A stretch of 57,567 nucleotides of DNA from an uncultured bacterium. GTDB taxonomy: Bacteria > Patescibacteriota > Minisyncoccia > Phycocordibacterales > Zambryskibacteraceae. Below are positions 5,466 to 55,153 of the stretch, piece by piece. The notes beneath the pieces were generated by a model. It was given only the letters and a program-made list of their open reading frames with translations. It had not been told where the DNA came from and made no database searches. Positions within the stretch are counted from its first letter, which is position 1. Each line of letters opens with the position of its first letter. The translations under genes and the position numbers were made by a program. Location: assembly GCA_963789635.1 (NCBI GenBank), contig CAWBLF010000001.1, positions 1 through 57,567 of the forward strand, in the 5' to 3' direction.

Positions 5466-5484
5466 GGAAAATAGTTTACAGACG

Positions 5485-5562
5485 TTAGTAGTTAGATGTT
5501 AGTTAAATACTATACAACATTATATATCCTATGAATTTGTTTATCTAACATCTAACTACTAA
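5485..5562. repeat. 18-bp perfect inverted repeat in the secY-adk spacer
   Basis: ttagtagttagatgttag (5485-5502) is the exact reverse complement of ctaacatctaactactaa (5545-5562). The arms are built from 7-nt periodic words. Confidence 0.85.
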
Positions 5563-5578
5563 TAACTATCTACTATTT

Positions 5579-6855: not shown

Positions 6856-7293
6856 CTATTCAATAATACCATCAAGCGCTTCAATCTTTTTGCGGGCACT
6901 CATCGAAATAGCACAGGATTGAAATTTCAACTTACTGGAAAGTGAACCGTTTCCTAAAATTTTCACTTTTGGTAGCGCGCCGTTAAGCTTCCTAACTATG
7001 CCCTTTTCGACAAGGGTCTTAGGATTAACTGTTTCCCCATTTTTAAAATCTCCAAGGGCTCCGAGATTTACCGCCGTAAACTTCGTCTGAATAGAAAGGT
7101 TGCTGTTTTTCCCCCGTCCTCGCAATTTGGGTAGACGTTTTATAACATCGCGAATTTCGGGATACTTTTTTCGTCCGGCGCGGGCATTTTGTCCCTTTGT
7201 CCCTTTGCCTGAAGTCTTGCCCCTGGTTCCTCCTCTACCGACTTCTATCGAGGTTTTGTTTGGGTGTCTTCTTTTGAGTGAGTGTATTTGCAT
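6856..7293 (-). CDS. rplO: 50S ribosomal protein L15
   Basis: GRGGTRGKTSGKGTKGQNARAG motif. Position between rpsE and secY. Confidence 0.9.
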   Translation of the reverse strand: MQIHSLKRRHPNKTSIEVGRGGTRGKTSGKGTKGQNARAGRKKYPEIRDVIKRLPKLRGRGKNSNLSIQTKFTAVNLGALGDFKNGETVNPKTLVEKGIVRKLNGALPKVKILGNGSLSSKLKFQSCAISMSARKKIEALDGIIE

Positions 7294-7296
7294 AAA

Positions 7297-7938
7297 TTAT
7301 TTCTTATCAGCGCCACGAACTTTTGAAAGTTTTGAAAGGGCCATCACGGCAACCTTGGCATTATTGGCGCGATTCTTGGTTCCTCCAATGAGCTTGGCGT
7401 TAACCGAAGTTAGTCCTGCAAGTTCAAGGACTATACGGACGGAGCTACCGGCAAGAATACCACGACCAGGAGCGGGCATAATGATGACACGAGAACTGCC
7501 GTACTTGGCTTGCACATCATGCGGAATAGACATGTCTTTTGTGGTCTGTATGGTTATCATATTTTTCTTTGCGTCACGAACAGCCTTATCAATGGCTAGC
7601 GGAGTATCTCCGGCTTTTCCTTGGCCGACACCAACACTTCCCTTACGGTTGCCGGCCACCAACGTGACTGAAAAACTAAAACGGCGACCACCCGAAGTCA
7701 CGCGTGTTACCCTTCGAATAGAAACTGTTTTATGGTCAAACTCTGGTTTAATTCTGGCCTCCTTACGACCACCACGTCTGGGGTTTTTCTTGTGTTCTCT
7801 GGGCGGACGCGCTCCACGAAAAGGACGGTCACCTTTTGTTTCAGCCTTTGTGACCGGCGCAGGAGAAACTGCGTCACCAGACGAAACCATTCCCTCCGTA
7901 TCCACTATTTCATTTGTTTGTGTTGTTTCTTCAGTCAT
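7297..7938 (-). CDS. rpsE: 30S ribosomal protein S5 with an ~70-aa basic/acidic N-terminal extension
   Basis: VTRVTSGGRRFSFSVTLVAGNRKGSVGVGQGKA and GLTSVNAKLIGGTKNRANNAKA match S5. Start set at ATG 7938 so it does not overlap the rplR stop at 7946. Confidence 0.9.
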   Translation of the reverse strand: MTEETTQTNEIVDTEGMVSSGDAVSPAPVTKAETKGDRPFRGARPPREHKKNPRRGGRKEARIKPEFDHKTVSIRRVTRVTSGGRRFSFSVTLVAGNRKGSVGVGQGKAGDTPLAIDKAVRDAKKNMITIQTTKDMSIPHDVQAKYGSSRVIIMPAPGRGILAGSSVRIVLELAGLTSVNAKLIGGTKNRANNAKVAVMALSKLSKVRGADKK

Positions 7939-7945
7939 ATAAGTA

Positions 7946-8296
7946 TTAAAAAACCAAGCCGCCCTTACGCGCTCCGTCGGCGATAGCTTTGACATTGCCG
8001 GTATAAATAAATCCACCTCTATCAAATACCGCGTATTTCACTTTTGAAGCAATGGCCTTCTTGGCCAACTCGACACCTACCGCGTGCGCCCTGTCCATTC
8101 CGGTTTTCCCGCTAACTGACTTAGTAGACATGGCGGCAATTGTTTTACCGGTACTATCGTCGATGAGTTGGGCATACAAGGTTGTATTTGACTTAAAAAT
8201 AGAAATCCTTGGCCTATCGCTTGTACCAGAAACCTTCGCTCGGATACGAGTGTGTCTTCGGTCTCTTTTTTCTTTTTTGCTGTTTTTAATTTTCAT
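7946..8296 (-). CDS. rplR: 50S ribosomal protein L18
   Basis: RHTRIRAKVSGTSDRPRISIFKSNTTLYAQLIDD and FDRGGFIYTGNVKAIADGARKGGL match L18. Confidence 0.9.
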   Translation of the reverse strand: MKIKNSKKEKRDRRHTRIRAKVSGTSDRPRISIFKSNTTLYAQLIDDSTGKTIAAMSTKSVSGKTGMDRAHAVGVELAKKAIASKVKYAVFDRGGFIYTGNVKAIADGARKGGLVF

Positions 8297-8316
8297 AATG
8301 CATTGTTACGGTGTTG

Positions 8317-8850
8317 CTATACTGATTTCTTTCCCTGCTTGATTTTTATCACTTCTCCTTCATATCTCATCCCTTTGCCCTTGTATGGTTCGGGTTTCTT
8401 TAACGCTCGCAAATGTGCTGTGAATTCGCCAACTTTATCTTTATCAATCCCGGAAACCGTAATAGTATTTTTCTCCACGGCAACCTTGATTCCTTGTGGA
8501 ATCGACACACTTACAGGGTGCGAAAAGCCCAAAGCCAAGACAACTTTATCCCCTTTCACTTCTACCCTATAACCAATTCCTTCAAGCACAAGCTTTTTTT
8601 CAAAAACTTTATTGACTCCGGAAATCATATTCATAACGTGTGAAGCATAAGTTCCCCACAAAGCCTTTGATTCCAGGGTTTCAACAGTTGGTTTTAATGT
8701 AACCTTGCCATCTTTGGATTCTACCGCCACTTCTTTGCGTACCTGGCGGGAAAGCTCTCCCAATGGTCCTTTGACGGACAACACGCCGTTGGCAAACACT
8801 ACGGTTGTGTTTGCTGGTATGGATATTTCTTTTTTGCCAATGCGTGACAT
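8317..8850 (-). CDS. rplF: 50S ribosomal protein L6
   Basis: MSRIGKKEISIP... and PEPYKGKGMRYEGE match L6. Operon position agrees. Confidence 0.9.
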   Translation of the reverse strand: MSRIGKKEISIPANTTVVFANGVLSVKGPLGELSRQVRKEVAVESKDGKVTLKPTVETLESKALWGTYASHVMNMISGVNKVFEKKLVLEGIGYRVEVKGDKVVLALGFSHPVSVSIPQGIKVAVEKNTITVSGIDKDKVGEFTAHLRALKKPEPYKGKGMRYEGEVIKIKQGKKSV

Positions 8851-8874
8851 TGTATTAATATTGAATTTTGAAAC

Positions 8875-9264
8875 TTACCATATATTGAAAAGCACTTCGC
8901 CACCGACTTTTTCTTTGCGCGCGTCTGCGCCGGTTAGAATACCCTTTGGAGTGGAGATGATGCTGTCGCCGTAGCCGTTTTTAACCTTACGAATATCACT
9001 TACTTGCTGGTATACACGACGAGACGGCTTGGAAACACGTTTTACTCCTGCAATTTTTGGGGTACGACCATCATAAACCAATTCAACTTCAATAAATTTT
9101 GTAACTTTTTTGCCTTTCTTGGTGACAGACTTGATGTATCCGTGATTTTGAAGAATAACGCAAATTTCATATTTAAGTTTGGAATACGGGATGATGACCG
9201 ACTCTTTTTGAGCGGCCGTACCATTCTGTATACGGATAATCATGTCTGAAATTGGATCGGTCAT
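8875..9264 (-). CDS. rpsH: 30S ribosomal protein S8
   Basis: MTDPISDMIIRIQNG... and GGEVLFNIW C-terminus match S8. Confidence 0.9.
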   Translation of the reverse strand: MTDPISDMIIRIQNGTAAQKESVIIPYSKLKYEICVILQNHGYIKSVTKKGKKVTKFIEVELVYDGRTPKIAGVKRVSKPSRRVYQQVSDIRKVKNGYGDSIISTPKGILTGADARKEKVGGEVLFNIW

Positions 9265-9356
9265 TGAATTAGTTTAAAAGTTTGGAAGTTTTTAAGTTTG
9301 GATTCGTTTGTTTGAGTATTTAACTTTCAAACTTACCAACTTTTCAAATTTGAGCT

Positions 9357-9542
9357 TTACCAGCTTGATTTTTTTATGCCGGGAATCTTGCCTTCGTTGG
9401 CAAATTCACGGAAACAAATACGACATAGGTCAAAATCTCGCATATAGCCATGCTTTCGACCACAGCGAAAACAACGATTAACAGCCCGAGTAGAGAACTT
9501 CGGGGTTTTCTTTGATCTTGCGATGACTGATGTTTTTGCCAT
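9357..9542 (-). CDS. rpsZ: 30S ribosomal protein S14, type Z (zinc-binding)
   Basis: 61 aa with CxxC...CxxC (CFRCGRKHG...CRICFRE). Confidence 0.9.
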
Positions 9543-9642
9543 GCGATTGATTTTCTTGAACGGAGCGATTAGAAAATCATCGTCCTAAGCCCGTTGGGGC
9601 GAAGGAGGACTGATTTGCTTTAACCTACTCCTTAGGTTATCT

Positions 9643-9665
9643 AACAAAAAAGCTTCAACGAAGCT
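9643..9665 (-). terminator. terminator-like hairpin plus U-run inside the rplE-rpsZ spacer
   Basis: Minus strand reads agcttc-guu-gaagct followed by uuuuuguu. It lies in a 275-nt spacer that is normally absent from spc operons. Confidence 0.4.
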
Positions 9666-9817
9666 AGGGTCTCATCCTAACAAGACCGTTTGGCATTGTC
9701 AAATATAGATTTTTTACCAAAGCACTTGAAAAAATACCTATAATTTTGGTGTTTTCCGACGTTTATGGCCATCCATTTGCAATCAAGTTAGACAAGACCT
9801 AATGACCTCAAAAACCG

Positions 9818-10381
9818 CTATCTTTTCTTTTTTTCAGTGTCCTCTTTTTTAAACGGAAAACCTAGCTCATCAAGAAACGCCTTGAGCTCATCCTTGGATT
9901 TTGCTGTAGTAACGACGGTAACCGCCAAACCGAATACATCTTTGAGGTCTTCATCCGATGTTTCCGGAAAAATCGTATGCTCACGAATGCCAAGCGTGTA
10001 GTTGCCCATTGAGTCAAAAGAAGTATTGGAAATGCCACGAAAATCTTTGGTGCGTGGTAATGCGATGTTGATCAACTTATCCAAAAAATCATACATGCGT
10101 GCACCGCGAAGAGTGGTCTGAAGACCTACGGGATCACCTTGTCGTACTTTGAAGGCCGCTACGGATTGTTTGGCTCCTTTGCGCGCAGACTTTTGCCCGG
10201 TAATTTTGGCGAGCCTGTCTTCCGCCAAATCAATCTTTTTCTTATCCTTAAACGAACCGACACCGGCCGAAATAACAACCTTTTGAATTTTGGGACTTTG
10301 CATAACATTTTTGTATCCCCTCTTATCCTTGAGAGATTTGTATGCGTCTTTCGCTTTTTCTTTTGTTGATTTGGTTGCCAT
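9818..10381 (-). CDS. rplE: 50S ribosomal protein L5
   Basis: 187-aa ORF with L5 blocks (PKIQKVVISAGVG, GMRGARMYDFLDKLINIALPR). Confidence 0.9.
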   Translation of the reverse strand: MATKSTKEKAKDAYKSLKDKRGYKNVMQSPKIQKVVISAGVGSFKDKKKIDLAEDRLAKITGQKSARKGAKQSVAAFKVRQGDPVGLQTTLRGARMYDFLDKLINIALPRTKDFRGISNTSFDSMGNYTLGIREHTIFPETSDEDLKDVFGLAVTVVTTAKSKDELKAFLDELGFPFKKEDTEKKKR

Positions 10382-10495
10382 CCCGATATAAAAATTTTAT
10401 TAATGAATTGCTGGTCTATCCTACTCGTTTTGAAGCTTTTGTCTACTTATTACACGTGAAATTTGTGCAATCTAACGTTATCCGGAATTAGATTA

Positions 10496-10804
10496 CTATG
10501 AAATTTCTGTTTTACTTTTTACCGCCACGCGGATACTTTTGTTGCCTTTCAATTCATGTCGAACTCTGGTTCCCTTGCCGGTCTTCGGATCAACCAGCTG
10601 GACGTTCGACACGTTAACAGGAAAAGCCTGCTCAAGAATCTGGCCTTTTTCATTGGTCTTGTTCGCCTTCTTGTGAATTTTTTTGATATTAACACTTGCG
10701 ACAACTACACTGTTTTGTTTTGGCAAAGCTCGAATAACCTTACCAGTCTTCCCCCGATCTTTTCCCGAAAGCACTACGACATTATCACCTTTTTTAATAT
10801 ACAT
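10496..10804 (-). CDS. rplX: 50S ribosomal protein L24
   Basis: MYIKKGDNVVVLSGKDRGKTGKV (KOW motif). The upstream part of the 156-aa ORF overlaps rplN and was trimmed to ATG 10804. Confidence 0.9.
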   Translation of the reverse strand: MYIKKGDNVVVLSGKDRGKTGKVIRALPKQNSVVVASVNIKKIHKKANKTNEKGQILEQAFPVNVSNVQLVDPKTGKGTRVRHELKGNKSIRVAVKSKTEIS

Positions 10805-10820
10805 AAATATTGATGAATGA

Positions 10821-11192
10821 CTAAACGACCTCTGGCGCCAAAGAAATAATCGGTTGAAAACCCATTTCACCGAGTTCCCGCGGAATCGGACCAAAGACGC
10901 GCCCGGCGATGGGCTCGTGCTTCGCTTTGTCCACGATAATAACGGCATTCTCATCAAAACGCACATATGAGCCGTCGGCTCTACGAAACGGGAATTTTTG
11001 TCTGGCCACTACGGCGTAAAGAATATCTTTTTTCTTGACCGCTTTTCGTGGTTGGGCCACCTGGACGGAAAGAACCACAATGTCCCCGATTTGGGCATAT
11101 CGTTTTTTGGAACCACCGAGCACTTTGAATATGCGTCCGATTTTTGCTCCGGAATTATCTGCGATTTTTACGATGGAACGTGGTTGAATCAT
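10821..11192 (-). CDS. rplN: 50S ribosomal protein L14
   Basis: MIQPRSIVKIADNSGAK... matches L14. Start trimmed to ATG 11192. Confidence 0.9.
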   Translation of the reverse strand: MIQPRSIVKIADNSGAKIGRIFKVLGGSKKRYAQIGDIVVLSVQVAQPRKAVKKKDILYAVVARQKFPFRRADGSYVRFDENAVIIVDKAKHEPIAGRVFGPIPRELGEMGFQPIISLAPEVV

Positions 11193-11202
11193 AATACGAA
11201 TG

Positions 11203-11502
11203 TTATAAATTGTTTTCGCTTCTGTCTGCGTTAGTTTCGCGTCTGTCTGCGACAACAACGAAGTGCTTGTTTTTTGAAATTGGTTTGGTTTCTCTTATAG
11301 TCACTTTCTCGCCGACGACACGAGCATTGCCAACATCGTGAACTTGATACCGCTTTCGACGTTGAATAAATTTTTTGTATCTTGGGTGCTCAACGAAGCG
11401 CTCGACAGCGACAACGATGGTGTCCTTCATTTTGGTCGAAACCACTACTCCTTTAAGGGTTTTTGATCGTGGAATTTTTTGTTGTGACGCTTTTGTATTC
11501 AT
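11203..11502 (-). CDS. rpsQ: 30S ribosomal protein S17
   Basis: LKGVVVSTKMKDTIVVAVERFVEHPRYKK matches S17. Start trimmed to ATG 11502, just after the rpmC stop at 11507. Confidence 0.9.
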   Translation of the reverse strand: MNTKASQQKIPRSKTLKGVVVSTKMKDTIVVAVERFVEHPRYKKFIQRRKRYQVHDVGNARVVGEKVTIRETKPISKNKHFVVVADRRETNADRSENNL

Positions 11503-11506
11503 ATAA

Positions 11507-11692
11507 TTACTTCTTTCTGCGCGACAACTCCGTTTGAACACGGGCTATCTCGCGACGCAAACCCCTGCCTTCTCTGACATTACGATTTTTACTTCCGGCA
11601 ATTCCAAAACGAAAATTTTTCAAGTTTTCCATTTTTTCAATGAGAAGCTTGTTTAAATCCTTGTCTTCTTTTGTTTGAATATCCTTGGTCAT
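11507..11692 (-). CDS. rpmC: 50S ribosomal protein L29
   Basis: 61-aa helical basic ORF between rplP and rpsQ (NLKNFRFGIAGSKNRNV...). Confidence 0.85.
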   Translation of the reverse strand: MTKDIQTKEDKDLNKLLIEKMENLKNFRFGIAGSKNRNVREGRGLRREIARVQTELSRRKK

Positions 11693-11701
11693 AATGAATT
11701 A

Positions 11702-12121
11702 TTATGTTCGAGCGACCACTTTGGTCTTGACCGGGAGCTTTGTTCCTCCTTTTCGCAAGGCCTCTCTGGCTTCCACTTCCGGTAATCCGTCAACTTCAAA
11801 AATAACTCTGCCCGGAAGAACAGCCGCCACGTAGCCGGCCAAATCTCCTTTACCCTTACCCAATTTAACTTCGGCAGGCTTCTGAGTATACGGCATGTCA
11901 GGAAAAATGCGAATCCAAACTTTGCCGGTCTTTCCGACTGACCTTGATATGGCTTTACGGGCTGCTTCAATCTGATTTGAACGAATGCGTCCGGACGCCA
12001 AGGACTTGAGCCCATACGAACCAAAAGCCACTGTAGTGCCACGAGAAGCCACGCCGACCTTGAGAGGGTTCTTGCGCATGGTTTGCCATTTTCGATATTT
12101 TACTTTTTTGGGTAGCAACAT
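11702..12121 (-). CDS. rplP: 50S ribosomal protein L16
   Basis: MLLPKKVKYRKWQ... and GKGKGDLAGYVAAVLPGRVIFEV match L16. Confidence 0.9.
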   Translation of the reverse strand: MLLPKKVKYRKWQTMRKNPLKVGVASRGTTVAFGSYGLKSLASGRIRSNQIEAARKAISRSVGKTGKVWIRIFPDMPYTQKPAEVKLGKGKGDLAGYVAAVLPGRVIFEVDGLPEVEAREALRKGGTKLPVKTKVVART

Positions 12122-12287
12122 GTTATTGATTTTTAAAAAACGAAGTGATTATAAAAATCATCATCCCTCCCCACATTTAACAATGACCATAAATGACCAT
12201 TGGAAGTTTGCTTTGTCATACTATTCTTTTTTTTAAAATTTGATTTCATGTTTAAAAGTGGAGCGGGATGCTCAATAAAAATAGTCG
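12122..12287 (-). promoter_or_regulatory. structured intergenic element, copy 1 (rpsC-rplP spacer)
   Basis: 166-nt spacer. Hairpin A is 12127-12135/12152-12160. The long-range stem pairs 12162-12180 with 12251-12270. Both ends are homologous to the 12960-13128 spacer. Confidence 0.7.
12133..12249 (-). CDS. candidate 38-codon small ORF inside spacer copy 1
   Basis: ATG 12249..TAA 12133 reads MKSNFKKKNSMTKQTSNGHLWSLLNVGRDDDFYNHFVF. It has the same length, frame position and termini as the ORF at 12971-13087. Confidence 0.3.
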   Translation of the reverse strand: MKSNFKKKNSMTKQTSNGHLWSLLNVGRDDDFYNHFVF

Positions 12288-12959
12288 CTATACTTCTTTT
12301 TTATTGGCAAAAATCTCACCGCGGTAAATCCATACTTTGATACCCAAGTGTCCATATGGAAGTTTGGCTTCGTAGTGAGCATAATCCACGTCGGCTCGAA
12401 ACGTCTGAAGAGGAATCTGTCCCATCTTCCTGGTTTCGCTACGAGCTATGGATGAACCGGCCAATCTCCCTCCTATGAAAATCTTTACTCCTTTGACATC
12501 GCGATTTGCCATAACCTTTTCGACCATCTGTTTGATGACTCTTCTATAGGGCAAACGCTTTTCCAAACCCTCGGCGACCATCTGAGCGACGATTAATGCA
12601 TTTGATTCTGGTGATTTGAGTTCACGAATATCAAGTTTGACTTCCTCTTTTCCGCTGTATACCCCGCGTTTTTTCATCATTCTGACAATTTCATCCTTTA
12701 GTTTTACGGCGCCGTCGCCACTGCGACCAATAATCATACCGGGGCGTGATGTCTCAACGATAATGCGAAGCATTTTTTCATTACGTTCAATTTCAATACT
12801 GCTGACATACATGCCTCGCAATTTCTTTTCCAAAAATGAACGGATAACGAGATCACCACGAAGAAAAGACTTGTACTTATCTTTCGCGCCGAACCAACGA
12901 GATTTCCAATCTCTGATTATGCCTAGTCTATGTGAATATGGGTGGACTGTGTGGGTCAT
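12288..12959 (-). CDS. rpsC: 30S ribosomal protein S3
   Basis: 223-aa ORF with the KH domain and S3 C-terminal blocks (GIIRDWKSRWF, GRLAGSSIARSE). Confidence 0.9.
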   Translation of the reverse strand: MTHTVHPYSHRLGIIRDWKSRWFGAKDKYKSFLRGDLVIRSFLEKKLRGMYVSSIEIERNEKMLRIIVETSRPGMIIGRSGDGAVKLKDEIVRMMKKRGVYSGKEEVKLDIRELKSPESNALIVAQMVAEGLEKRLPYRRVIKQMVEKVMANRDVKGVKIFIGGRLAGSSIARSETRKMGQIPLQTFRADVDYAHYEAKLPYGHLGIKVWIYRGEIFANKKEV

Positions 12960-13128
12960 GTGGCTGATTTTTAACGAGCGGAGCGAGTATTAAAATCGCC
13001 ATCCAGCTCCACTTTTAATGCAAACTTCATGTGATTACTGAAAGTGTGCTGTGCTAGCATATCATTTTTTATAAAATGTGATTTCATGTTTAAAAGTGGG
13101 GCTGGATACTCAAAAAATATATTGTTCA
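12960..13128 (-). promoter_or_regulatory. structured intergenic element, copy 2 (rplV-rpsC spacer)
   Basis: 169-nt spacer. Hairpin A is 12966-12974/12990-12997. The long-range stem pairs 13001-13018 with 13090-13107. It is a paralogue of 12122-12287. Confidence 0.7.
12971..13087 (-). CDS. candidate 38-codon small ORF inside spacer copy 2
   Basis: ATG 13087..TAA 12971 reads MKSHFIKNDMLAQHTFSNHMKFALKVELDGDFNTRSAR. It is a paralogue of the 12133-12249 ORF. Confidence 0.3.
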   Translation of the reverse strand: MKSHFIKNDMLAQHTFSNHMKFALKVELDGDFNTRSAR

Positions 13129-13506
13129 TTATTTTTTGGTAGCTTTTAGTTTTTTTTCTTTCTTTGCTTTTGATTCTTTTGTTTCAAGCACAAGCATAAT
13201 GTGGCTTGTACGCTTGTGAATGGACGGCGCACGGCCACGGGAAGCGGAACGTCGTCGGTATAAAATTGCGCCACCATCAACACGAATTTCCTTAATATAC
13301 AAATTATCGGTTTCAATCGCTTTGTCTTTGGCGTTTGCAATGGCCGAAGCAATAAGCTTGCCTAAAGGGTTGGACGAGCGTTTTGCGATGAAACCCAGTT
13401 TGGTCAAAGCTAGATTGGCGTTTTGTCCACGCAACTCTCTTGCCACAAGTCTCACCTTTCTGGGCGATTGACGATAATCATTGAGTTGTGCGGTTACTGT
13501 AGACAT
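13129..13506 (-). CDS. rplV: 50S ribosomal protein L22 (Lys-rich C-terminal tail)
   Basis: SPRKVRLVARELRGQNANLAL and RRRSASRGRAPSIHKRTSHI match L22. Confidence 0.9.
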   Translation of the reverse strand: MSTVTAQLNDYRQSPRKVRLVARELRGQNANLALTKLGFIAKRSSNPLGKLIASAIANAKDKAIETDNLYIKEIRVDGGAILYRRRSASRGRAPSIHKRTSHIMLVLETKESKAKKEKKLKATKK

Positions 13507-13520
13507 AAAATAATATTAAA

Positions 13521-13880
13521 CTACTTTTTTGGAGCCGCTGTTGTAGACCCTGCGGTGGCAGCTTTGGCCGACTGAGCTGCCGCGATTTCGGATTCTTTCT
13601 TTGCTTGTTCAATTTCCTTTTGCATTTTACCGCCGTGTTTTATGAATTTACGGGTCGGTGAAAATTCTCCCAGTCTGTGACCCACCATGTCTTCGGACAC
13701 AAAAACCTCTATGTGGTCTTTGCCGTTGTGGACACCGAAGGTAAATCCCACCATTTCAGGTGCTATCTGGCTTGCTCGTGACCAAGTCTTAATGACACTT
13801 GAGGTACCGGCTTTCTGCCCCTCAATTTTCTTGAGAAGTCTTTCGTCAACATATGGTCCTTTTTTACTTGATCGTGTCAT
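13521..13880 (-). CDS. rpsS: 30S ribosomal protein S19 (about 27-aa Ala/Lys-rich C-terminal extension)
   Basis: [19 protein letters not shown]... and [13 protein letters not shown] match S19. Confidence 0.9.
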
Positions 13881-14053
13881 TGCCAGACTAAATTTTCTTA
13901 TAAAATCGCTAAACCAATTGGTTCTGCCTATTCTATCCCCTCGTATTTAACTCGGTAAATAAAATTATTTTTGGTTGGTGAACATAAAAAGCCCACGAAG
14001 AGCTTGGCCGAATACTAGCAAAATATCCAGTATTGTCAAATGAGATAGCCTTG

Positions 14054-14911
14054 TTACTTCTTCCCCACCTTCCTTCTTCGAACGATGTAAACGTTTGAAT
14101 ATTTTTTCGGTCGACGAGATTTTTGACCCTTGCCTGTTGGTCGGCCGGTGCGTGTTTTTTGTCGACGGCTGCCACGTCCGCTACGGCCTTCACCTCCACC
14201 GTGCGGATGGTCTACCGGGTTCATCGCTGTTCCTCTCACGGTAGGACGAATACCCAGCCAACGAGAACGGCCGGCTTTACCAAGATTTACCAGACGGTTC
14301 TCATCATTGGAAACTTCACCCAACGTAGCAAAACAATTTTCACTGACTTTACGAATTTCCGACGAAGGCATCTTGAGGTCAACCTTACCCGCGTCTTTGG
14401 CTACAACTTCAATGTAGTTACCTGCAGAGCGTCCGAGCTTACCACCTCCATGGGGTTTGACTTCCACATTGTATACAAATGTTCCCAACGGAATATTTTT
14501 TAATGGCAGACGATTACCCGGTGTTTGCGGAGCGGATTCACCTGTCATCAATACGTCTCCAACTTTAACTCCTTTGGGTAACAACACGTAACGCTTTTCT
14601 CCGTCACGATAAACTGCAAGACCGATAAAACCTGTGCGATTTGGGTCATACTCCACACTTGAAATGGTGTAGGGGATGTTCAATTTGTCATACATAAAAT
14701 CAATTTCACGAAACAAACGCTTGTGTCCTCCCCCTTTGTGCGAAGTGGTGATGCGACCGTGGTGATTGCGTCCCATTTTACGGCTAAAACCTGTCGTTAA
14801 AGACTTGTGAGGATTTTGCTCGGTAACAATCTTCGAATAGTGAATCGAAGTCATGTTGCGTCGCGATTTTGTTGTCGGTTTGTAGTGTTTCATTTTTTTA
14901 TACAAATTCAA
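14054..14911 (-). CDS. rplB: 50S ribosomal protein L2
   Basis: GRNHHGRITTSHKGGGHKR and RGTAMNPVDHPHGGGEGR match L2. Confidence 0.95.
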   Translation of the reverse strand: MNLYKKMKHYKPTTKSRRNMTSIHYSKIVTEQNPHKSLTTGFSRKMGRNHHGRITTSHKGGGHKRLFREIDFMYDKLNIPYTISSVEYDPNRTGFIGLAVYRDGEKRYVLLPKGVKVGDVLMTGESAPQTPGNRLPLKNIPLGTFVYNVEVKPHGGGKLGRSAGNYIEVVAKDAGKVDLKMPSSEIRKVSENCFATLGEVSNDENRLVNLGKAGRSRWLGIRPTVRGTAMNPVDHPHGGGEGRSGRGSRRQKTRTGRPTGKGQKSRRPKKYSNVYIVRRRKVGKK

Positions 14912-15242
14912 TCTTGTCTCCTTTCTTCAAATAGACAAGCGCTTTTTTGCCACCCGCGCGAAATCCTTTTTTGCCACGCGAAATAGTATTCTTCCTTGGT
15001 ATAGTAACGATACTGACCTTTGTCGGAGTAACTTTGTAACTTTCGACCACAGCGTCATGAATTTGTGATTTTGTTGACGATGGTATCACATTGAAAATAT
15101 AAACATTATCATTCATGGCCTTATCCGAAGCTTTTTCGGTAATACGCGGGCTTAAAAGAATGTGAGTAAGGTGATGCATGCCGGGAACTTTTTCGGTTTT
15201 TGAAACTTCTTTTGATTCTTTTGAAACTTTTTTTATAGCCAT
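14898..15242 (-). CDS. rplW: 50S ribosomal protein L23 (N-terminal extension)
   Basis: ILLSPRITEKASD... and KKALVYLKKGDKIE match L23. Located between rplD and rplB. Confidence 0.85.
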   Translation of the reverse strand: MAIKKVSKESKEVSKTEKVPGMHHLTHILLSPRITEKASDKAMNDNVYIFNVIPSSTKSQIHDAVVESYKVTPTKVSIVTIPRKNTISRGKKGFRAGGKKALVYLKKGDKIEFV

Positions 15243-15252
15243 AAAAATATCC

Positions 15253-16047
15253 TTATTTAACGGTCTTTTTTGTCTTACTTGGTTTGGTAGCTTTGGCTTT
15301 TATTTTGACGGAAGCTGTGGCTTTTCTCGTCGCCCGAACCGGCTTGGACGAAACAATCGCATCAGAAGTCTTGTTTTCAAGCGGTGTCTTCACTTTTGAC
15401 TCCAAAAGGGCGATAGCCTCTTTTGATCCGACCAAAACAATACCTTTGTACTGCAAAAGCATTAGTGGATTAAGATTTCTTACCTCATCTACGGTGACAG
15501 TTTCAATATTGCGAAGACTTCGGACAACACTTTCATCGCGAGTAGCGAGAGCAATCAAAAGAGCGTTGCCCTTTTTTTCAAATGAAGGAAAATTCTTTAT
15601 TTCTTTGCTGAGCAAAGAAAGTGTGGAAACCGCCATTTTGGTCTTCGCGTCATTTATGGAAAGCGAATCAATAAAAAATATCTCACCATCGCGAAATTTT
15701 CTGGAAAGGATGGTGTAAAGAGCCTTGGCTTTCATGCCACGACCCACTTTACGGGCATAATTTTTATCGTTGCGTGGGCCGTGAGTTACACCTCCACCTA
15801 CCCATATTGGTGAGCGAGTAGAGCCGTGTCGCGCTCGGCCGGTACCCTTCTGTTGCCAAGGTTTTTTGCCTCCTCCACTCACCTCACCTCTTGTTTTGGC
15901 ATGGGCGATAGTTTGTCTGGCATTCGATGCCATGGACACAGCGACTTGGTGGACCAAATCGGAATTCCAACGTAAACCAAAAACATGTTCTGGAAGTGTG
16001 ATCTTTCCTGTCTCTACTCCTTTTTGGTTGTACACTACTGATTCCAT
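15253..16047 (-). CDS. rplD: 50S ribosomal protein L4 (about 50-aa Lys-rich C-terminal extension)
   Basis: GGGKKPWQQKGTGRARHGSTRSPIWVGGGVTHGP matches L4. Confidence 0.9.
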   Translation of the reverse strand: MESVVYNQKGVETGKITLPEHVFGLRWNSDLVHQVAVSMASNARQTIAHAKTRGEVSGGGKKPWQQKGTGRARHGSTRSPIWVGGGVTHGPRNDKNYARKVGRGMKAKALYTILSRKFRDGEIFFIDSLSINDAKTKMAVSTLSLLSKEIKNFPSFEKKGNALLIALATRDESVVRSLRNIETVTVDEVRNLNPLMLLQYKGIVLVGSKEAIALLESKVKTPLENKTSDAIVSSKPVRATRKATASVKIKAKATKPSKTKKTVK

Positions 16048-16083
16048 GTTTTATTTGAAATTATCAATCGGTTTTCAAGATTC

Positions 16084-16701
16084 TTAATTTTTTCCCCTTA
16101 TTTCCACAAGCGTGCCACGACGACCCGGTACTGCACCAGAAACCAAAATGAGATTGTCTTCAGGATTGATTTGGATCACCTTAAGATTCTTCACCGTGAT
16201 GCGATCACTGCCCATTCGGCCACCCATACGCATTCCTTTTGGCACTTTGTTACGCAAACCTCCTCCAATAGAACCCGGCTCACGTTCGGAGTGCTTTTGA
16301 CCGTGGCTTCTTGGGCCTCCTTTGAAACCGTGACGCTTAACAACACCCTGGAACCCTTTTCCTTTTGAGGTGGCAGAAACAGAAACCACGTCTCCCTCAG
16401 CGAAAGAAGAGACGTCGATAGTACTTCCCAGTTCAGGGGTTGGGTCTTCATTACCGACGCGAAACTCTCTGACGGTGGCAAAAGAACCTTTGCCGGCGAA
16501 ATGCCCCTTTAGAGATTTTGTGAGATTCTTCTCTTTTTTCTTACCAAACCCCAATTGTACGGCTTTGTAGCCATCACGAGCCGGGTCTTTGATTGCAGTA
16601 ACGACCTGTTTGTCTGAGGTTAATACTGTCACAGCAGTAACCCGGCCTTCACTGTCGAAGACCTGAGTCATGCTATGCTTTTTTGCCAAAAGAAATTTCA
16701 T
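16084..16701 (-). CDS. rplC: 50S ribosomal protein L3
   Basis: GKGFQGVVKRHGFKGGPRSHG matches L3. Confidence 0.9.
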   Translation of the reverse strand: MKFLLAKKHSMTQVFDSEGRVTAVTVLTSDKQVVTAIKDPARDGYKAVQLGFGKKKEKNLTKSLKGHFAGKGSFATVREFRVGNEDPTPELGSTIDVSSFAEGDVVSVSATSKGKGFQGVVKRHGFKGGPRSHGQKHSEREPGSIGGGLRNKVPKGMRMGGRMGSDRITVKNLKVIQINPEDNLILVSGAVPGRRGTLVEIRGKN

Positions 16702-16860
16702 CTCGTTACAAAAACTTTAATATATCGAATTGCTTGCCTATCCTAATGATTTTTGACTTTTTGTCTACCCTGACTAGAACAAACCCCCCGTTGAGATTTC
16801 GTACGGGACAAAAAGATTTTCTTCTCTATTCCCTATTCATTATTACCTATTCGTTTCGTA

Positions 16861-17268
16861 TTACATCAACTTCACATCAATATTCACTCCGGACGGAAGA
16901 GAAAGGTTTGTTAGCGACTCGATTAGTTTTGGTGTCGGGTTAACAATGTCAATCAATCGCTTATGAATCCTCATCTCAAACTGCTCTCGCGCATTTTTGT
17001 AGACGAAGGAAGCTCGATTGACCGTATACTTTTTGATTTCTGTAGGCAGAGGAATCGGCCCCAGAACTTGCGCATCATAACGCATAGCTGTATCCATGAT
17101 TTGTTTGACCGAAAGATCAAGAATCTTGTACTCGTAAGCGCGCACACGAATACGCAGACGTGACACGGATATCTCCTTGGAAACTTTTGGCGCTCTGGCG
17201 ACTTTCGCCGTTGCTGTGACTTTGGATTTCTTTGGTGCGCTCTTTTTTGTTGTAGTTTCTTTAGCCAT
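16861..17268 (-). CDS. rpsJ: 30S ribosomal protein S10 (about 35-aa Lys/Ala-rich N-terminal extension)
   Basis: [15 protein letters not shown]... and [18 protein letters not shown] match S10. ATG at 17268 preferred over TTG at 17274. Confidence 0.9.
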
Positions 17269-17332
17269 AATCAATTTGCAATGAACGACTTACAATGGAA
17301 CAAATTTTGTTCTTTATCCTTTATATTTGTGT

Positions 17333-18541
17333 TTATGCGGTAATCTTCGTCACCACTCCTGCGCCAACAGTCTTACCTCCTTCGCGGATGGCAAAACGCT
17401 GTTGGTCTTCAAGAGCAATAGGCGAAACGAGTTTTACTTTAAAGGTAACAGTGTCACCAGGCATTACCATTTCTACCCCCTCTTTGAGAGTAACTTCTCC
17501 GGTCACATCAGTGGTTCGGATATAGAATTGTGGCTTGTAACCGGTGAAGAATGGTGTGTGTCTTCCCCCTTCTTCCTTTTTCAACACATAAACTTCTGAT
17601 TCAAATTCAGTGTGAGGAGTAACTGAACCAGGTTTTGCAAGAACTTGTCCGCGAGTAATGTCTTCTTTTTTAAGACCTCGGACCAAGATACCGGCGTTAT
17701 CTCCGGCCATACCACTGTCGAGAGACTTGTTGAACATTTCAATGCCGGTAACAACTGTCTTGGCCGTAGGCTTTAGACCCACAACCTCGACTTCTTCACC
17801 TACTTTGACGGTGCCTCGTTCAATTCTTCCGGTAACCACAGTCCCTCGTCCTTCGATAGAAAAGATGTCTTCTACCGGCATGAGGAATGGCTTATCAACT
17901 TCGCGGACCGGGTTTGGAATAAAGGTGTCAAGAGTTTTTACAAGCTCCATAACCTTCAGTGCCCACTCATCATCCGCAGATTTTGATTCCAAAGCCTTAA
18001 GACCCGAGCCTCGAATGATAGGGGCGTTTGCACCATCAAAACCCTGCTTGGTGAGAAGTTCGCGTATTTCTTCTTCCACAAGGTCAATAAGTTCCTTGTC
18101 GGGAACCATGTCGCATTTGTTTAGGAAAACAATGACTTTTGGCACACCTACTTGTTTGGCAAGGAGGATGTGTTCACGAGTCTGTGGCATAACACCGTCG
18201 GTAGCAGCCACCACCAACACCGCGCCATCCATTTGTGCGGCTCCGGTAATCATGTTTTTTATGTAGTCAGCGTGTCCTGGAGCGTCGATGTGCGCATAGT
18301 GACGATCGGGAGTCCAGTATTCGGAGTGGTGAAGCGCAATAGTAATTCCACGAGCCTTTTCTTCGGGAGCACTGTCAATCTTGTCGACGGCTTCAACGCG
18401 AGCACCATAACCCTTATCCTTGTTCATATCAAGGACGTGAAGGATGGAGGCTGTCAAAGTCGTTTTGCCGTGGTCAACGTGGCCGATAGTACCCACATTC
18501 ACGTGAGGCTTGGAACGATCAAATTTTGTTTGTTCTGCCAT
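17333..18541 (-). CDS. tuf: elongation factor Tu
   Basis: 402-aa ORF with [18 protein letters not shown] and NKCD G-motifs, intact throughout. Confidence 0.97.
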
Positions 18542-18774
18542 AAATTTGTAAATTAATTACTTGTCTGAGGTCACCGCGCGAGAGGTTGGCAAACTCATCC
18601 AACTAAATACTAATAAAAATTACTATAAAATTACTTGATAACTATTTGCAGACCAAAATTAAAAGGCGCAAAAAGCGTGAGCATCATAATAGCAAAGTGC
18701 TCCTAATAGTCAAGTAAAATGAGCCATTTTATCCATATTATATTCACAAGCTATGCACATGTGCTGAAATGGCC

Positions 18775-18810
18775 AAAAAATGAAAACCCCGCACGTTATT
18801 GCGTACGGGG
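18775..18810 (-). terminator. intrinsic terminator after the 100-aa orphan gene
   Basis: Stem 18787-18795/18802-18810 (one G.U on the minus strand), followed on the minus strand by uuuucauuuuuu. Confidence 0.7.
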
Positions 18811-18825
18811 CGGGGTTTGATTTCC

Positions 18826-19128
18826 TCAAGTTACTGGCGAAAGGCGCTTCAAACAGACTCCACCACTATCAGAATCGGACACCAACATGACCATCATTCC
18901 AACCGCTGACAGTTTCATATTTATACAAAAAATCTCTGCATCAGTGACGTCGAATTCGAGATATTCTTTACCTTCGATGGGGTGATTGCCGTTTTTCCTA
19001 AGGTGTAAGATAATTGCAACCTCATTATTGTCCTTAGTTCTTCCCCGGGTGAGTAGAAATATTATTTCATTCCACTCATCGTCGGTTATTTCGTAGTCAT
19101 CTAATTCTCTGGGTTTCTTGTAATCCAT
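18826..19128 (-). CDS. orphan hypothetical protein (acidic N-terminus, 100 aa)
   Basis: ORF MDYKKPRELDDYEITDDEWNEIIF... is preceded by a canonical SD (uggaggUAGA-AUG) and followed by its own terminator. Confidence 0.6.
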   Translation of the reverse strand: MDYKKPRELDDYEITDDEWNEIIFLLTRGRTKDNNEVAIILHLRKNGNHPIEGKEYLEFDVTDAEIFCINMKLSAVGMMVMLVSDSDSGGVCLKRLSPVT

Positions 19129-19625: not shown

Positions 19626-20018
19626 TTACGACTGAAAAGGACCGTCTCCTGTTAGAATTCTGGAAAAACTACCGGCTAGGAACGGCAAATTATCTGCGTT
19701 GATACCCCTTTCCTCAAGCATTACTATCATTTGTTTATGCGCTTCTGGAGATGCACTGCGTAGTTGCTTATGTAATTCTGTAGCTTGTGTCTGACCTAAT
19801 TCAGCAACTCGATTGTTGGCCGAAATTTGTTCGTCAGTAGACTCCTTAGACAGCACCGACTGCTTATATGACTCTTTAGTAGAAACAAATTCATCAACCC
19901 CGTTCTTAAACCTTAAAACAGCTTTCTCGTCGTCACTCAAACCTTCCCATCTAGTTTCATCTGATTCTTGTGCAGACACAGGCACTTCAGGGGCTGAATT
20001 AAAACTTTCCATTCCCAT
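19626..20018 (-). CDS. orphan acidic hypothetical protein (130 aa) with the MGMExFNxAP N-terminus
   Basis: ORF MGMESFNSAPEVPVSAQESDE... Its first 13 codons and about 50 nt upstream are repeated at 54836-54918. Confidence 0.6.
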   Translation of the reverse strand: MGMESFNSAPEVPVSAQESDETRWEGLSDDEKAVLRFKNGVDEFVSTKESYKQSVLSKESTDEQISANNRVAELGQTQATELHKQLRSASPEAHKQMIVMLEERGINADNLPFLAGSFSRILTGDGPFQS

Positions 20019-20069
20019 ATTTTTTTAATTTAATTGTTAATCCGCGACTTAATTCTACCCCCCCCACCT
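19988..20069 (-). repeat. promoter/leader/N-terminus module, copy 1 (contains a G8 tract)
   Basis: About 80% identical to 54836-54918. Minus strand reads TTGCAA-15 nt (ending in G8)-TAGAAT, then about 34 nt, then ATGGGAATGGAAAGTTTTAAT. Confidence 0.8.
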
Positions 20070-39968: not shown

Positions 39969-42900
39969 CTAGAACTCCTTAAACGCTGGGTTAATCACGA
40001 CCTGCACCGAAGCCGAAGCGCTACCGGTATTACCCAGACTGTCTTTGACGGTGCATGTCGCGGTCTTCGTCCCTACCGTCTGATATGTGATGCTAAATGA
40101 TCCTGACGCAGGTGGCGGACTGGGGAAATCAGTGCCCGAACAAGTATAAGTGTATGGACCAGTCCCTCCTGTCACTATAAATTGCCACGACACCGAATTA
40201 CCCACGTATGCGGTCGGAGAAACGGAAGGAGTGACAGTCAAGCTAGTCGGGGCCGTCACATTGAGATTGAAGCTCGTGCTTTTGTTAACTCCACCACTTG
40301 TTCCATTCACTGTAATTGGGTAATTGCCGGTAGCCACACTAGATGGGGCAGTTATGTTGATAAATATATTACATGTCGGATTGCAACCGTTGTTTGCATA
40401 ATTGTATGCCAAGTTTGCGGGAGCTCCAGATATGGATAATATCACCCCTTGAGTGGAACCGCTGTTTAGAGTAACCGCGATTGTTTCCTGCTGTTGCGAT
40501 CCGCCTTGAGCAACAACCAATGTCCCTTGATTTGGCGAAAGACTATAACTGTAGGTGGAACAACTTATGCCATTCCAACTGCTTCCCGATGCGCAACTTG
40601 TGGTGACATTAGTTTGAGCAAGCAATAAGCTGTTGTTATAGAGGAAAAAGTTCACACCTGAAGAGTTGTAAGGAACGGTGAAGTTTTGTGAACCATTATT
40701 TCCATTCGAAGGACTTGGCGTCCCAGTCGGACTGGTGACCGCCGAAGTGGCCACTGGGTTGGTCGTTGTCCACGTGAGACTTTGTGTACAACTACTTGCA
40801 CCGGAGGCGATAGTGCAGGTCGGGTTCAATGGGGTCAGAGTACCTGCCATTGTGCCACCGGCGGTACAAGCGCTACCGCTCCACGCTGTACCAGAAACGC
40901 AAACAGTACTGACATTTGTTTGGGCAAGAATAGTGCCGTTGTTATACAAATAAAAATTAACTCCAGATGGGTTATAAGGAGCACTGAAACTCTGCGAACC
41001 GTTGTTACTAGTTATCGGACTTGGCGTTCCGCTTGGGCTGGTAACTTGTGAAGTTCCTATTGGGTTAGTAGTTGTCCAAGTCAAAGTCTGAGCGCAACTG
41101 TTTGCACCTGATGCGATAGTACAAGTTGGATTAAGTGGAGTGAGTGTTCCCGTCGGAAGAGCGGTTGTCGTAAATGTTGCAGTTGGAGAATACCCTGTTC
41201 CAGCGCTGTTTGTGGCATACCCGCGATAATAATACAGAGTGCCTGGAGTCATACCCGTTCTGGATTGTGAATATGTTCCTGTAACTGTACCTCCTTCTGG
41301 TACGCAATTTGTCGTTGGTGAAGTCGTGGTTCCCCAGCACGTACCACGGGCCGATATAACAGCCGGACTACCCAAAGACGTGACGTTTGCCCCCAACAAA
41401 GCGCTCGTCGTTGTAATGGTTGTGGCAGTAGGAGTCGTGACAGTCGGTACAGCATTGGCTACGCAACTTGTGCCATTCCATGTACTTCCAGACGCGCAAG
41501 TGACATTTAGAGTAAATGACGTTGAATGAGTAATAGTCGTAGCAGGACTGTATGTAATAACAATCACACCTGAAGCACCGTTGCCACCCTTTGTACTGAA
41601 ACCAGAATTAGAACCGCTACCTCCACCACCATAAAGCCCTCCATTAGATCCGTTGTTATAAGCGCCTGTACCATTATTATTACTCCCTGGACCACTGGCA
41701 CCACTTCCCGAGCCAGCTGTTCCCCATTCGGTACCGTTGTTACCAATGGCACCAACACAATAGCCACTGAAATTAATGACGGAGGACACTGTGGCGCCTC
41801 CCGAACCCGCATCTCCTGCGCCACCAGCACCACAAGCCTGACCAGCTGGCGCGCCTCCAGCCTGACCGGGTCCGTTGGGTCCTGCGGCTCCTCCACCTCC
41901 ACCGGCATCAGTATAGTTGGTATTAATAGAATCTGAATTTCCACCATTTCCGCCAGAATAACCTGTGCCATATAACACAGTTCCTCCTGTGCCTCCGACC
42001 AGATTTCCACCACTAAAGCTATTCAATCCTGGTTGACCACCACCTGCACCTACTGTTGTATTGTTAAATGTGGTGTTTCCCCCCGCGGTTGCGTTTACAC
42101 TTGACGACTGTCCGCCCGTACCACCAGCACCTATAGTTATTGGAATATAACCTCCGGGGGAAAGCGTCACATTGGATACTTTGGCATATGCACCACCTCC
42201 ACCACCCACATCTGAATAGTAAGAAAAGTCAGATCCACCACCACCACCACCAATAACCTCAATTTTATTACTGGAATTATTCCAATCAGACGGGACTGTC
42301 CAGCCTGTTCCACTAGTCAAAATAATTGTTTTCGCCGCGCCTGCGGAATTTGCTGTTCCCGTCACGGTAATCGGATAAGTGCCATATGTCGCGCTAGCTC
42401 CCACTGTAAAGTTGACAAGAGAATTGCAAGCCGGTGAGCATCCCTGATTTGTGTAAGTAAATGTGACATTGGCGGGTGCGCCGCTGGCTGTTATCGTCAC
42501 CGGCTGAGATGTCCCAGAAAGGACAGTAAGCGGAATAGTCTCCGAGCCGGATGAACCTTGGGCAATACTTATTGTTCCGCTGTTGGAAATACCGAAGTCA
42601 AAACCGCCTCCGCTTGCTGTCACTGTCACAGTGCCTGAACCGGAACCATTGCCGTTGGCGTTTGAACAAACTTTTGTATAGGTCGTTGTTGAACCAGGAT
42701 AAACAGTGACCGAGCCAGACAGGGCGGTTGACCCACTCCACGCATCGGTGGAACATGATGTCGCTCCGCTGGAACTCCATGTGATAGTCGTTGAACCGCC
42801 GGAAGTGACGCTTGATGGCGAAGCGGAAACAGTAACTGTCGGGACACTGCCCGCCGTCACCGTTAGCATAGCCGAGCCGGAATTACTGCCGTTGGCGTTT

Positions 42901-47612: not shown

Positions 47613-47641
47613 TTGACAACCTCTACGACTTTGACTATAAT
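47613..47641 (+). promoter_or_regulatory. consensus sigma-70-type promoter
   Basis: TTGACA (47613-47618), 17-nt spacer, TATAAT (47636-47641). Confidence 0.75.
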
Positions 47642-47647: not shown

Positions 47648-47900
47648 GTTATGAGTAATGGTTCGCCTTCACGGGCGGGCCATTATTCTTAAGTTTAGAA
47701 AAATAAGGAGCTTGGCGACCATATTTTTGTTAACCCAGCACCAATTTTGCTAAATAGATAATGTGCGCAGTACGTGGCTGAATAAGCCCTCCGATTATGG
47801 GCGAAGTGCTGCGCCATTAGAGGTTTGTGGCTATTCGCCACTCGCGCTTCGCGTGGTATTGTAAATGCAAAATTGGTGCTTGGGTGCTGAATTTTATTAT
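47648..47900 (+). ncRNA. unclassified structured RNA / long 5' leader upstream of nusA
   Basis: 11-bp hairpin 47657-47667/47674-47684. 18-bp closing stem 47733-47750/47867-47885 (one bulge) enclosing about 115 nt with several sub-hairpins. No credible ORF. Confidence 0.5.
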
Positions 47901-47924
47901 TCATTAATATTCATAAAAATTCGT

Positions 47925-54866: not shown

Positions 54867-54918
54867 ATTTTTAGAATTAAATTGTTAAACTCAACAATCC
54901 AATTCTACCCCCCCCACT
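54836..54918 (-). repeat. promoter/leader/N-terminus module, copy 2 (contains a G8 tract)
   Basis: Minus strand reads TTGTAT-15 nt (ending in G8)-TAGAAT ... ATGGGAATGGAAAACTTTAAC. About 80% identical to 19988-20069. Confidence 0.8.
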
Positions 54919-54929
54919 GAAAATACAAG

Positions 54930-54953: not shown

Positions 54954-55035
54954 ACGCATCATTTTCCGCTGAAAATGTGCGCTACCCCGCCTCGCGCCGT
55001 CGCGCTCCGGCCTTCGATTCTCCTGCCCCACCGCG

Positions 55036-55149: not shown

Positions 55150-55153
55150 AAAT

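Follow-up and report, generated by a model that had tools for sequence, protein, structure and literature searches.

Why do two long, structured spacers flank rpsC in an operon in which one cistron usually follows the next with hardly a gap? Few gene arrays are as conserved as the S10-spc operon. In the window analyzed here, i.e., the whole 57,567 nucleotides (nt) of contig CAWBLF010000001.1 from an uncultured member of the Patescibacteria (family Zambryskibacteraceae, assembly GCA_963789635.1), rplV and rpsC are separated by 169 nt and rpsC and rplP by 166 nt; these gap sizes, given in the original prediction made from the sequence, are correct according to the gene layout. Here, we report that the two spacers (copy A before rpsC and copy B before rplP) belong to one family of structured cassettes that recurs at other junctions in closely related genomes. 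The reading that we favor, tentatively and with a little less than even confidence, is that they are an intercistronic cassette, restricted to this lineage and mobile in evolution, which by its fold and a relay open reading frame (ORF) keeps up translation of the downstream gene.

Family membership and distribution

The two spacers had been proposed to be paralogs of the same architecture, and this is what we find: they align without gaps over their whole length and both fold alike. The shared order of parts is a 5' block (..GCGACUAUAUUUUU..), a closing helix (P1), a core, a hairpin (P3), 2-6 nt and the ATG of the next gene. Copies A and B are colinear, with an offset of 838 nt in both repeat blocks and no net indel, at 74-78% identity by the repeat finder and 72.6% over 157 nt by blastn; their nhmmer E-values are 5e-51 and 9e-48, respectively. 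The 35-nt 5' block has matches in the window only at these two copies, with 0 expected by chance. The spacers are not an assembly artefact, because an independent Logan assembly (L021) is 100% identical across 5868 nt covering both.

None of the relatives examined has such spacers at the two rpsC junctions. All 20 GTDB species representatives compared (S3 identity 57-87%) have 1-26 nt at rplV|rpsC and 5-30 nt at rpsC|rplP, the sister genome L022 (P0002, S3 94% identical) has 5 and 31 nt, and four further S3 relatives (P0004, P0005, P0008 and P0013) have compact rpsC junctions without the element. A conserved leader or regulator specific to rpsC is contradicted by these gaps of 1-31 nt at both junctions in every relative examined. 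One short ENA contig (L150:1-258) carries upstream of rpsC a G+C-rich sequence unrelated to rplV and is probably chimeric.

A covariance model (R1) was built from the first five copies, and related genomes were searched with it and with a hidden Markov model (HMM). Homologs were found in two other genomes, at other junctions. In L022 a homolog lies between rplN and rplX (L14|L24; nhmmer 3e-23); in L025 one copy lies between rpsQ and rplN (S17|L14) and another upstream of rpsC, the latter cut by the contig end; and in L157, which comes from the same sample as L025, copies occupy rpsH|rplF (S8|L6) and rplF|rplR (L6|L18). Each of the 12 copies has the sense orientation and stops 2-6 nt short of an ATG, and the genes they precede are all translation or transcription genes (S3, L16, L14, L24, L6, L18, S14, S19 and NusA). 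The loci examined hold 3-5 copies per genome, all in the operon or in the nusA leader, and no further copy turned up in the remaining ~46 kb of the window, nor in loci of other relatives amounting to ~245 kb. When metagenomes were scanned with the invariant 18-mer CCACTTTTAAACATGAAA, the matches listed were chance matches except L086 (the same contig as L023), and a two-arm pattern gave 0 matches in viral contigs.

Comparison of filled and empty sites indicates that the entire native spacer is replaced, without a target-site duplication or flanking direct repeat; the native junctions are short, typically '..ACC ATG', and carry no Shine-Dalgarno (SD) motif. Judged from these sequences, cassettes of ~170 nt appear to have been gained or lost at stop-to-start junctions of the S10-spc operon, within a family seemingly confined to one narrow clade of Paceibacteria (Patescibacteria).

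A copy that the original prediction overlooked is located in the 5' untranslated region (UTR) of nusA. It has the 5' block, P1 (47734-47750 with 47867-47883) and P3 as in the operon copies, together with a G+C-richer core of 112-113 nt that contains no conserved ORF, whereas the operon-type core is exactly 67 nt long. A consensus promoter, TTGACA-N17-TATAAT, stands upstream near 47613-47641. The same variant is found at the same place in L153/L154 and in L155/L156, i.e., it is orthologous in three genomes. L152 encodes a NusA with 98% identity and shares the promoter, the first leader hairpin and an otherwise conserved flank, with 21 unrelated nt in place of ~220 nt; at the sequence level, this is a clean presence/absence difference between close strains.

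P3 also occurs by itself. The partial third copy that had been noticed before rpsZ (S14) is recovered by a hairpin-only covariance model (Table 1), and L013 has a P3-only copy before rpsS, directly 3' of an ORF with a GIY-YIG domain. Two other candidates were rejected: a full "mini copy" in L013, in which the P1 alignment by the model is spurious and P3 alone is real, and a solo P1-like hairpin at L153:7493-7530, considered as a scar of the element, which is the orthologous terminator of the gene after nusA.

Fold and short open reading frame

P1 is 17-18 bp long, and the operon-type copies contain in addition an inner helix of 8 bp (P2). P3 consists of 3-4 outer pairs, a bulged A and an invariant GAUUUU/AAAAUC stem closing a loop of 16-24 nt with two YUCRYU motifs; as modeled, it is a weak A/U hairpin adjoining the next start codon. 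The predicted pairing of the 5' and 3' blocks is confirmed in copy A, where the P1 arms are 94% complementary over 18 nt, and copy B forms this helix too. In RNA folding, copy A has a z-score of -3.6 and copy B one of -1.9. The compensatory changes described between the two copies (A-U versus C-G and G-C versus G.A) are correct, and the idea that the helix is under selection gained from the additional copies, in which pairing is kept through further compensatory changes. The 3' hairpins also stand as described, with GATTTT..AAAATC at 12128-12159, 12966-12997 and 9549-9578; this pattern has six matches in the window versus 0.68 expected.

Covariation was counted across the seven operon copies, aligned with MAFFT without regard to structure. 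Standard pairs fill 88% of the cells, versus 37-52% when the partners are slid by 1-3 columns. Both-sided changes occur in 12 pairs (five in P1, five in P2 and two in P3), versus 3-5 with slid partners and 5.7 ± 1.6 after shuffling; none of the 500 shuffles attains 12. P2 is the weakest helix, with 77% of its cells paired. Three outer pairs of P3 covary in a hairpin-only alignment that includes the two P3-only copies, and the nusA-type core covaries as well (e.g., GUGGC/GCCAC versus GCACC/GGUGC). On the sense strand there are 16 G.U versus 4 A.C over all helices; P2 is strongly asymmetric (11 versus 1), P1 is balanced (4 versus 3), and the summed energy of P1 is -199 kcal/mol in sense versus -177 kcal/mol in antisense. 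This strand asymmetry favors the transcribed strand as the one that folds.

The operon copies also contain a short ORF that had been overlooked. It has 38-45 codons (38, 38, 38, 45, 38 and 40 in the complete copies; the cut copy is open to its end), begins with a conserved AUG-AAA just 3' of the P1 5' arm and spans P2, the P1 3' arm and most of P3. The AUG-AAA is kept even in the divergent L6|L18 copy. This frame has 0 stops in all seven operon copies, and the other two frames mostly have 2-5. In copy A the frame can be followed upstream as far as 13129, where an ATG overlaps the stop of rplV (TAATG); from there the ORF is 52 aa long, as gene callers predicted. Between the stop and the next ATG there are 11 nt in copies A and B and in the S8|L6 copy of L157, and 5-6 nt in L022 and in the L6|L18 copy of L157; the ORFs of the two L025 copies end in a TGA that overlaps the next ATG. 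A crude neutral simulation on a star tree puts the chance of all copies staying open at about 0.001-0.004; it overstates the independence of the copies, and it nevertheless agrees with the conserved AUG-AAA and the fixed stop position.

The peptide, by contrast with its frame, evolves neutrally as far as the aligned copies tell, without purifying selection. Its dN/dS is about 1 (0.4-1.6) and codon position 3 is the least variable; in the P3 loop the third positions are the conserved ones, and the conserved residues (LKVG, DF) fall on the P1 and P3 helix strands. A fold that presents the putative relay AUG was considered and set aside: in the predicted ensembles, the AUG has an unpaired probability of 0.48-0.59 versus a mean of 0.44-0.47.

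The translation context of the genome bears on these junctions. SD-like 4-mers precede 5 of the 55 long ORFs of the window versus a background of 8.5%, i.e., there is no enrichment, as had been judged by eye for the native genes. The further proposal that the long stem sequesters a GGAGG-like tract did not survive the comparison, since this tract is the covarying strand of the P1 3' arm and is not conserved, reading GGAGCUGG, GGGGAGGG, GGGGCUGG or GGUGCUUGG across copies; together with SD not being used, SD sequestration was rejected. A TATAAT box of the leaderless type stands 6-8 nt ahead of the ATG in several genes, which suggests frequent leaderless or near-leaderless mRNAs. With no SD enrichment and genes 1-31 nt apart, the operon genes are therefore probably translated by termination-reinitiation, and the distal cistrons probably depend on close stop-start coupling.

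Table 1. Coordinates of the rpsC region, of the cassette copies in the window and of their parts
Feature	Position	Strand	Evidence or remark
rplV	13129-13506	minus	
Copy A, family-1 cassette, entire rplV-rpsC spacer, 169 nt	12960-13128	minus	covariance model R1, 191.9 bits
Copy A P1 5' arm, AUCCAGCCCCACUUUUAA	13090-13107	minus	pairing and covariation
Copy A P1 3' arm, UUAAAAGUGGAGCUGGAU	13001-13018	minus	pairing
Copy A P2 5' strand, partner 13018-13025	13053-13060	minus	covariation
Copy A P3 hairpin, tandem YUCRYU in loop	12962-13000	minus	outer pairs covary
Copy A short ORF, MKSHFIKNDMLAQHTFSNHMKFALKVELDGDFNTRSAR	12971-13087	minus	38 codons and stop; stop 11 nt before rpsC ATG
rpsC (S3), between copies A and B	12288-12959	minus	
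Copy B, family-1 cassette, entire rpsC-rplP spacer, 166 nt	12122-12287	minus	covariance model R1, 172.4 bits
Copy B P1 5' arm	12251-12270	minus	
Copy B P1 3' arm	12162-12180	minus	
Copy B P3 hairpin	12124-12162	minus	
Copy B short ORF, MKSNFKKKNSMTKQTSNGHLWSLLNVGRDDDFYNHFVF	12133-12249	minus	38 codons and stop; stop 11 nt before rplP ATG
rplP	11702-12121	minus	
P3-only copy immediately before rpsZ (S14) ATG	9540-9588	minus	hairpin-only covariance model, 55.8 bits, E = 2e-9
nusA-type copy, nusA 5' UTR, 216 nt	47705-47924; also given as 47712-47927	plus	overlooked in the original prediction
nusA, downstream of nusA-type copy	47925-49157	plus	

Other inserts and repeats of the window

Other junctions of the same operon carry structured spacers of different kinds. 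A second stem-closed family occupies 10382-10495 (rplX|rplE) and 16702-16860 (rpsJ|rplC), both on the minus strand, with a TAGACA-N16-TAGGAT block and the end '..GGG ATG'; homologs are found at rplP|rpmC in L022 and L025, at rpsE|rplO in L157 and upstream of tig in L153 and L155, and their closing stems covary (UAUGAAA/UUUCAUA versus UAGGAAA/UUUCCUA). All 113 nt of the secY|adk spacer (5466-5578, minus strand) form one hairpin of ~45 bp (-38.4 kcal/mol, z = -8.0), which is homologous in L022, with TAGGAT..TATAAT at the apex; L157 has 27 nt there. The rplB|rpsS junction is hypervariable in all relatives, ranging from 86 to 2937 nt, and holds unrelated ORFs, i.e., a protein of 512-514 aa without a Pfam domain in L022 and L003 and the GIY-YIG nuclease-domain ORF in L013; the ORFs of the L022 insert (L2|S19) have no Pfam domain and include no transposase. 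In the window, this junction (13881-14053) contains TTGACA-N16-TAGTAT with a TG upstream and, after it, a hairpin that resembles a terminator. Given the hypervariable rplB|rpsS junction and at least two further families of stem-closed spacers, the cassette thus belongs to a broader pattern of inserts at junctions in this lineage.

The rplE|rpsZ spacer, at whose 3' end the P3-only copy lies, is 275 nt long (9543-9817, minus strand) and contains a promoter-like TTGACA-N17-TAGGAT (9702-9674) and then a hairpin with a U run (9665-9651). It is partly conserved in many relatives and may be an rpsZ leader or attenuator separate from the P3 copy.

The window contains further repeats. Two pairs of direct repeats of 115-119 nt (76-80% identity, 237-240 nt apart) at 42616-43091 are probably a repeated domain within a gene. 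A 53-nt repeat (CAGGGGCTG..TTCCATTCCCAT..) with 87% identity at 19988-20040 and 54836-54888 may be a common 5' end or upstream region of two genes. A tRNA cluster spans 54927-57564, with Rfam tRNAs at 55079-55149, 56417-56487 and 56516-56586 and tRNA-like repeats up to the end of the window.

Candidate roles and known systems

How might an insert of this size be tolerated in such an operon? In the mobile cassette reading, the cassette replaces the entire native spacer of 1-31 nt and would be co-transcribed in sense orientation. The relay ORF would carry ribosomes across the insert and deliver them to the downstream start, so that coupling survives an insertion of 170 nt; the closing helix would hold the two ends together, keeping the insert compact and tolerated, and P3 would form the initiation region. 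The cassette itself would be dispensable to its host, acting as a low-copy selfish or neutral element. A ribosome relay is, we infer, the most economical account of an ORF that is open and yet neutral.

Several points weigh against this reading. If ribosomes constantly passed through P1 and P3, the maintenance of these helices would be left unexplained; and the nusA-type copy retains P1 and P3 without a conserved ORF, therefore the fold must matter beyond a relay. The upstream flank of the relay AUG is paired in P1, and the predicted accessibility of the AUG is barely above average. There is no transposase in the loci examined and no other sign of a movement mechanism, the spacer being replaced rather than interrupted. 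The covariation and ORF statistics rest on ~10 full or near-full related copies, full copies being found in three genomes, all of them metagenome assemblies, and the independence of the copies is overstated in the simulation mentioned above. Please note that the metagenome scan was dominated by chance 18-mer matches, and copies in other contexts were possibly missed.

The fold could instead serve regulation. A shared trans-acting factor, e.g., NusA or a ribosomal protein, might bind the P3 loop or the P1/P3 junction and control initiation at the abutting start, making the copies a small regulon of translation and transcription genes. The kinds of genes preceded, the hairpin always 2-6 nt from the AUG, the tandem YUCRYU of the P3 loop, in which third codon positions are better conserved than the other two (a sign of constraint on the RNA), and the nusA-leader copy with its covarying core at the same place in three genomes are all in line with this. 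We nevertheless regard such a factor as unlikely, since the nusA leader of the closest relative (L152) and the same junctions in sister genomes lack the element, the sets of preceded genes differ among genomes in a way unexpected for a regulon, only one P3-only copy (L013) is found outside the small clade, and the open ORF is left unexplained. The long helix recalls, on the other hand, the RNase III-cut intervening sequences of rRNA: a cut in P1 would split the polycistronic mRNA, and P3 would serve as a protective 5' hairpin of the downstream part. P1 is nearly all Watson-Crick and stacks on P2, giving ~25 bp on one continuous 3' strand, occurrence is as sporadic as that of the intervening sequences of rRNA, long hairpins are found in other spacers of the operon too (secY|adk and the closing stems of the second family), and an RNase Y gene lies near nusA in relatives. 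P1 by itself, however, falls short of the two or so helical turns usual in RNase III substrates, and cleavage would part the start of the relay ORF from its end, leaving the preserved frame and the AUG-AAA unexplained; a processing or stability element thus seems rather doubtful to us.

It is less probable still that the element acts in DNA, as an internal promoter or operator cassette or as a repeat like a miniature inverted-repeat transposable element (MITE) with protein-binding inverted repeats, the RNA fold having no role. Several copies have TATAAT, TATATT or TATACT as the 5' half of P3, the core has TGnTATGCT-like extended -10 motifs, the other two spacer families have promoter-like blocks (TAGACA-N16-TAGGAT; TAGGAT/TATAAT), leaderless-type promoters occur in the genome, and the near-perfect inverted repeat of P1 has G.U and A.C in balance. 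Yet there is no -35-like hexamer at the right spacing, a consensus scan finds no coding-strand promoter in either spacer, promoter-like counts overall do not exceed those of shuffled sequence (20 versus 14 ± 4.7), the inverted repeats are subterminal, with 20-40 conserved nt on the 5' side and ~50 nt on the 3' side and no target-site duplications, and both the G.U asymmetry of P2 and the single orientation of all copies speak against it. That the ORFs are functional micro-protein genes of 38-45 aa is very improbable. The frame is open in all seven copies with its AUG-AAA, and gene callers have called it twice in public data (P0241 and P0242, as 38-aa and 52-aa proteins), but the dN/dS values and the variability of the codon positions led us to reject such a gene; in addition, the peptides of copies A and B are only ~32% identical (12/38, hand count) and their nucleotide sequences ~73%, those residues that are conserved lie on helix strands, and a profile search of 5.8 billion proteins returned the window's own ORF and one other copy only.

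Returning to the mobile cassette, one may go a step further, to a proposal that we consider unlikely: a self-contained "coupling cassette," i.e., a new class of mobile element adapted to operons without SD, which targets the stop-to-start junctions of highly expressed translation genes and brings its own relay ORF and a start-proximal entry hairpin, making the insertion translationally silent. If this were true, then, with at least two other stem-closed spacer families, the most conserved operon of bacteria would, in Patescibacteria, harbor structured RNAs or DNAs of a selfish kind. The S10-spc junctions here gain or lose structured inserts between strains with 98% identical NusA or 94% identical S3, and the inserts look shaped for harmlessness, with a helix that closes them, a relay ORF that evolves neutrally and a hairpin adjoining the start codon. 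They offer a natural experiment on the translation of distal cistrons without SD pairing in Patescibacteria, which, to our knowledge, cannot yet be grown alone. For annotation, such spacers are easily confused with ribosomal protein (r-protein) leaders or tiny hypothetical genes, and the presence or absence of the cassette could mark strains of the clade.

The original prediction did not recognize the spacers as a known r-protein leader, and they have no Rfam match: a cmscan of 7000-19000 at E <= 1 gave a spurious Xist match only, a gathering-threshold scan of the whole window gave the three tRNAs only, and in the literature we found nothing on such elements in Patescibacteria. The autoregulatory leaders of r-protein operons (S10/L4, spc/S8, L10, L20, S15) are likewise structured RNAs before r-protein cistrons, with a start-proximal helix and covariation. 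Their position is conserved across related species, whereas the cassettes are not conserved at a given gene, have paralogs before many genes and are dispensable in the nearest relatives, the junctions being compact in 20/20 GTDB representatives and in the closest metagenomic relatives. Such leaders are also bound by a protein of their own operon and mimic its site on rRNA; the window contains no 16S or 23S sequence. The RNase III-processed intervening sequences of 23S and 16S rRNA are sporadic inserts of 100-200 nt with a long closing helix in highly expressed operons of the translation apparatus, and Patescibacteria are known for rRNA insertions; the cassettes resemble them in patchy occurrence and in a long closing helix (P1 of 17-18 bp plus P2 of 8 bp) and differ in being located in mRNA spacers, with an ORF and a start-adjacent hairpin. 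As for MITEs, the inverted repeats are not terminal, P1 being internal, with 20-40 nt of conserved element on its 5' side (the GCGACUAUAUUUUU block) and ~50 nt on its 3' side (P3), and the filled/empty comparison shows whole-spacer replacement in place of a target-site duplication.

In behavior, the family is closest to the ERIC elements of enterobacteria and the Correia/NEMIS elements of Neisseria, and to the Rickettsia palindromic elements (RPE), while failing defining features of each; these elements and RUP/BOX of pneumococci were compared by their general features. Like ERIC, Correia/NEMIS and RUP/BOX, the cassettes are imperfect palindromes of 100-200 nt whose ends pair into a long stem in the mRNA, they sit in transcribed intergenic DNA, vary in presence between close strains and have no coding capacity for a transposase. 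Unlike those, which occur in both orientations at many unrelated loci, they are of very low copy number and are found only at S10-spc stop-to-start junctions and in the nusA leader, all 12 copies in one orientation and abutting a start codon, with a subterminal inverted repeat, no target-site duplication and a conserved open frame. RPEs are palindromes of ~100-150 nt in small, reduced genomes that keep one frame open, allowing harmless translation, as frame 0 is open in all operon copies here. RPEs, however, are inserted in-frame inside protein genes and add a peptide, while all cassette copies lie between stop and start or in a 5' UTR, with their own start and stop in the former, and the profile search found no larger protein containing the cassette peptide. 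The remaining likeness is to relay-ORF coupling, or termination-reinitiation, in which a short ORF with an unimportant peptide ends near or overlapping a downstream start (AUGA, UAAUG) without SD. The stop is near or overlapping the downstream start in all seven operon copies and the peptide is unconstrained; the putative relay ORF here belongs, in contrast, to a duplicated, movable structured cassette rather than being a fixed feature of one operon.

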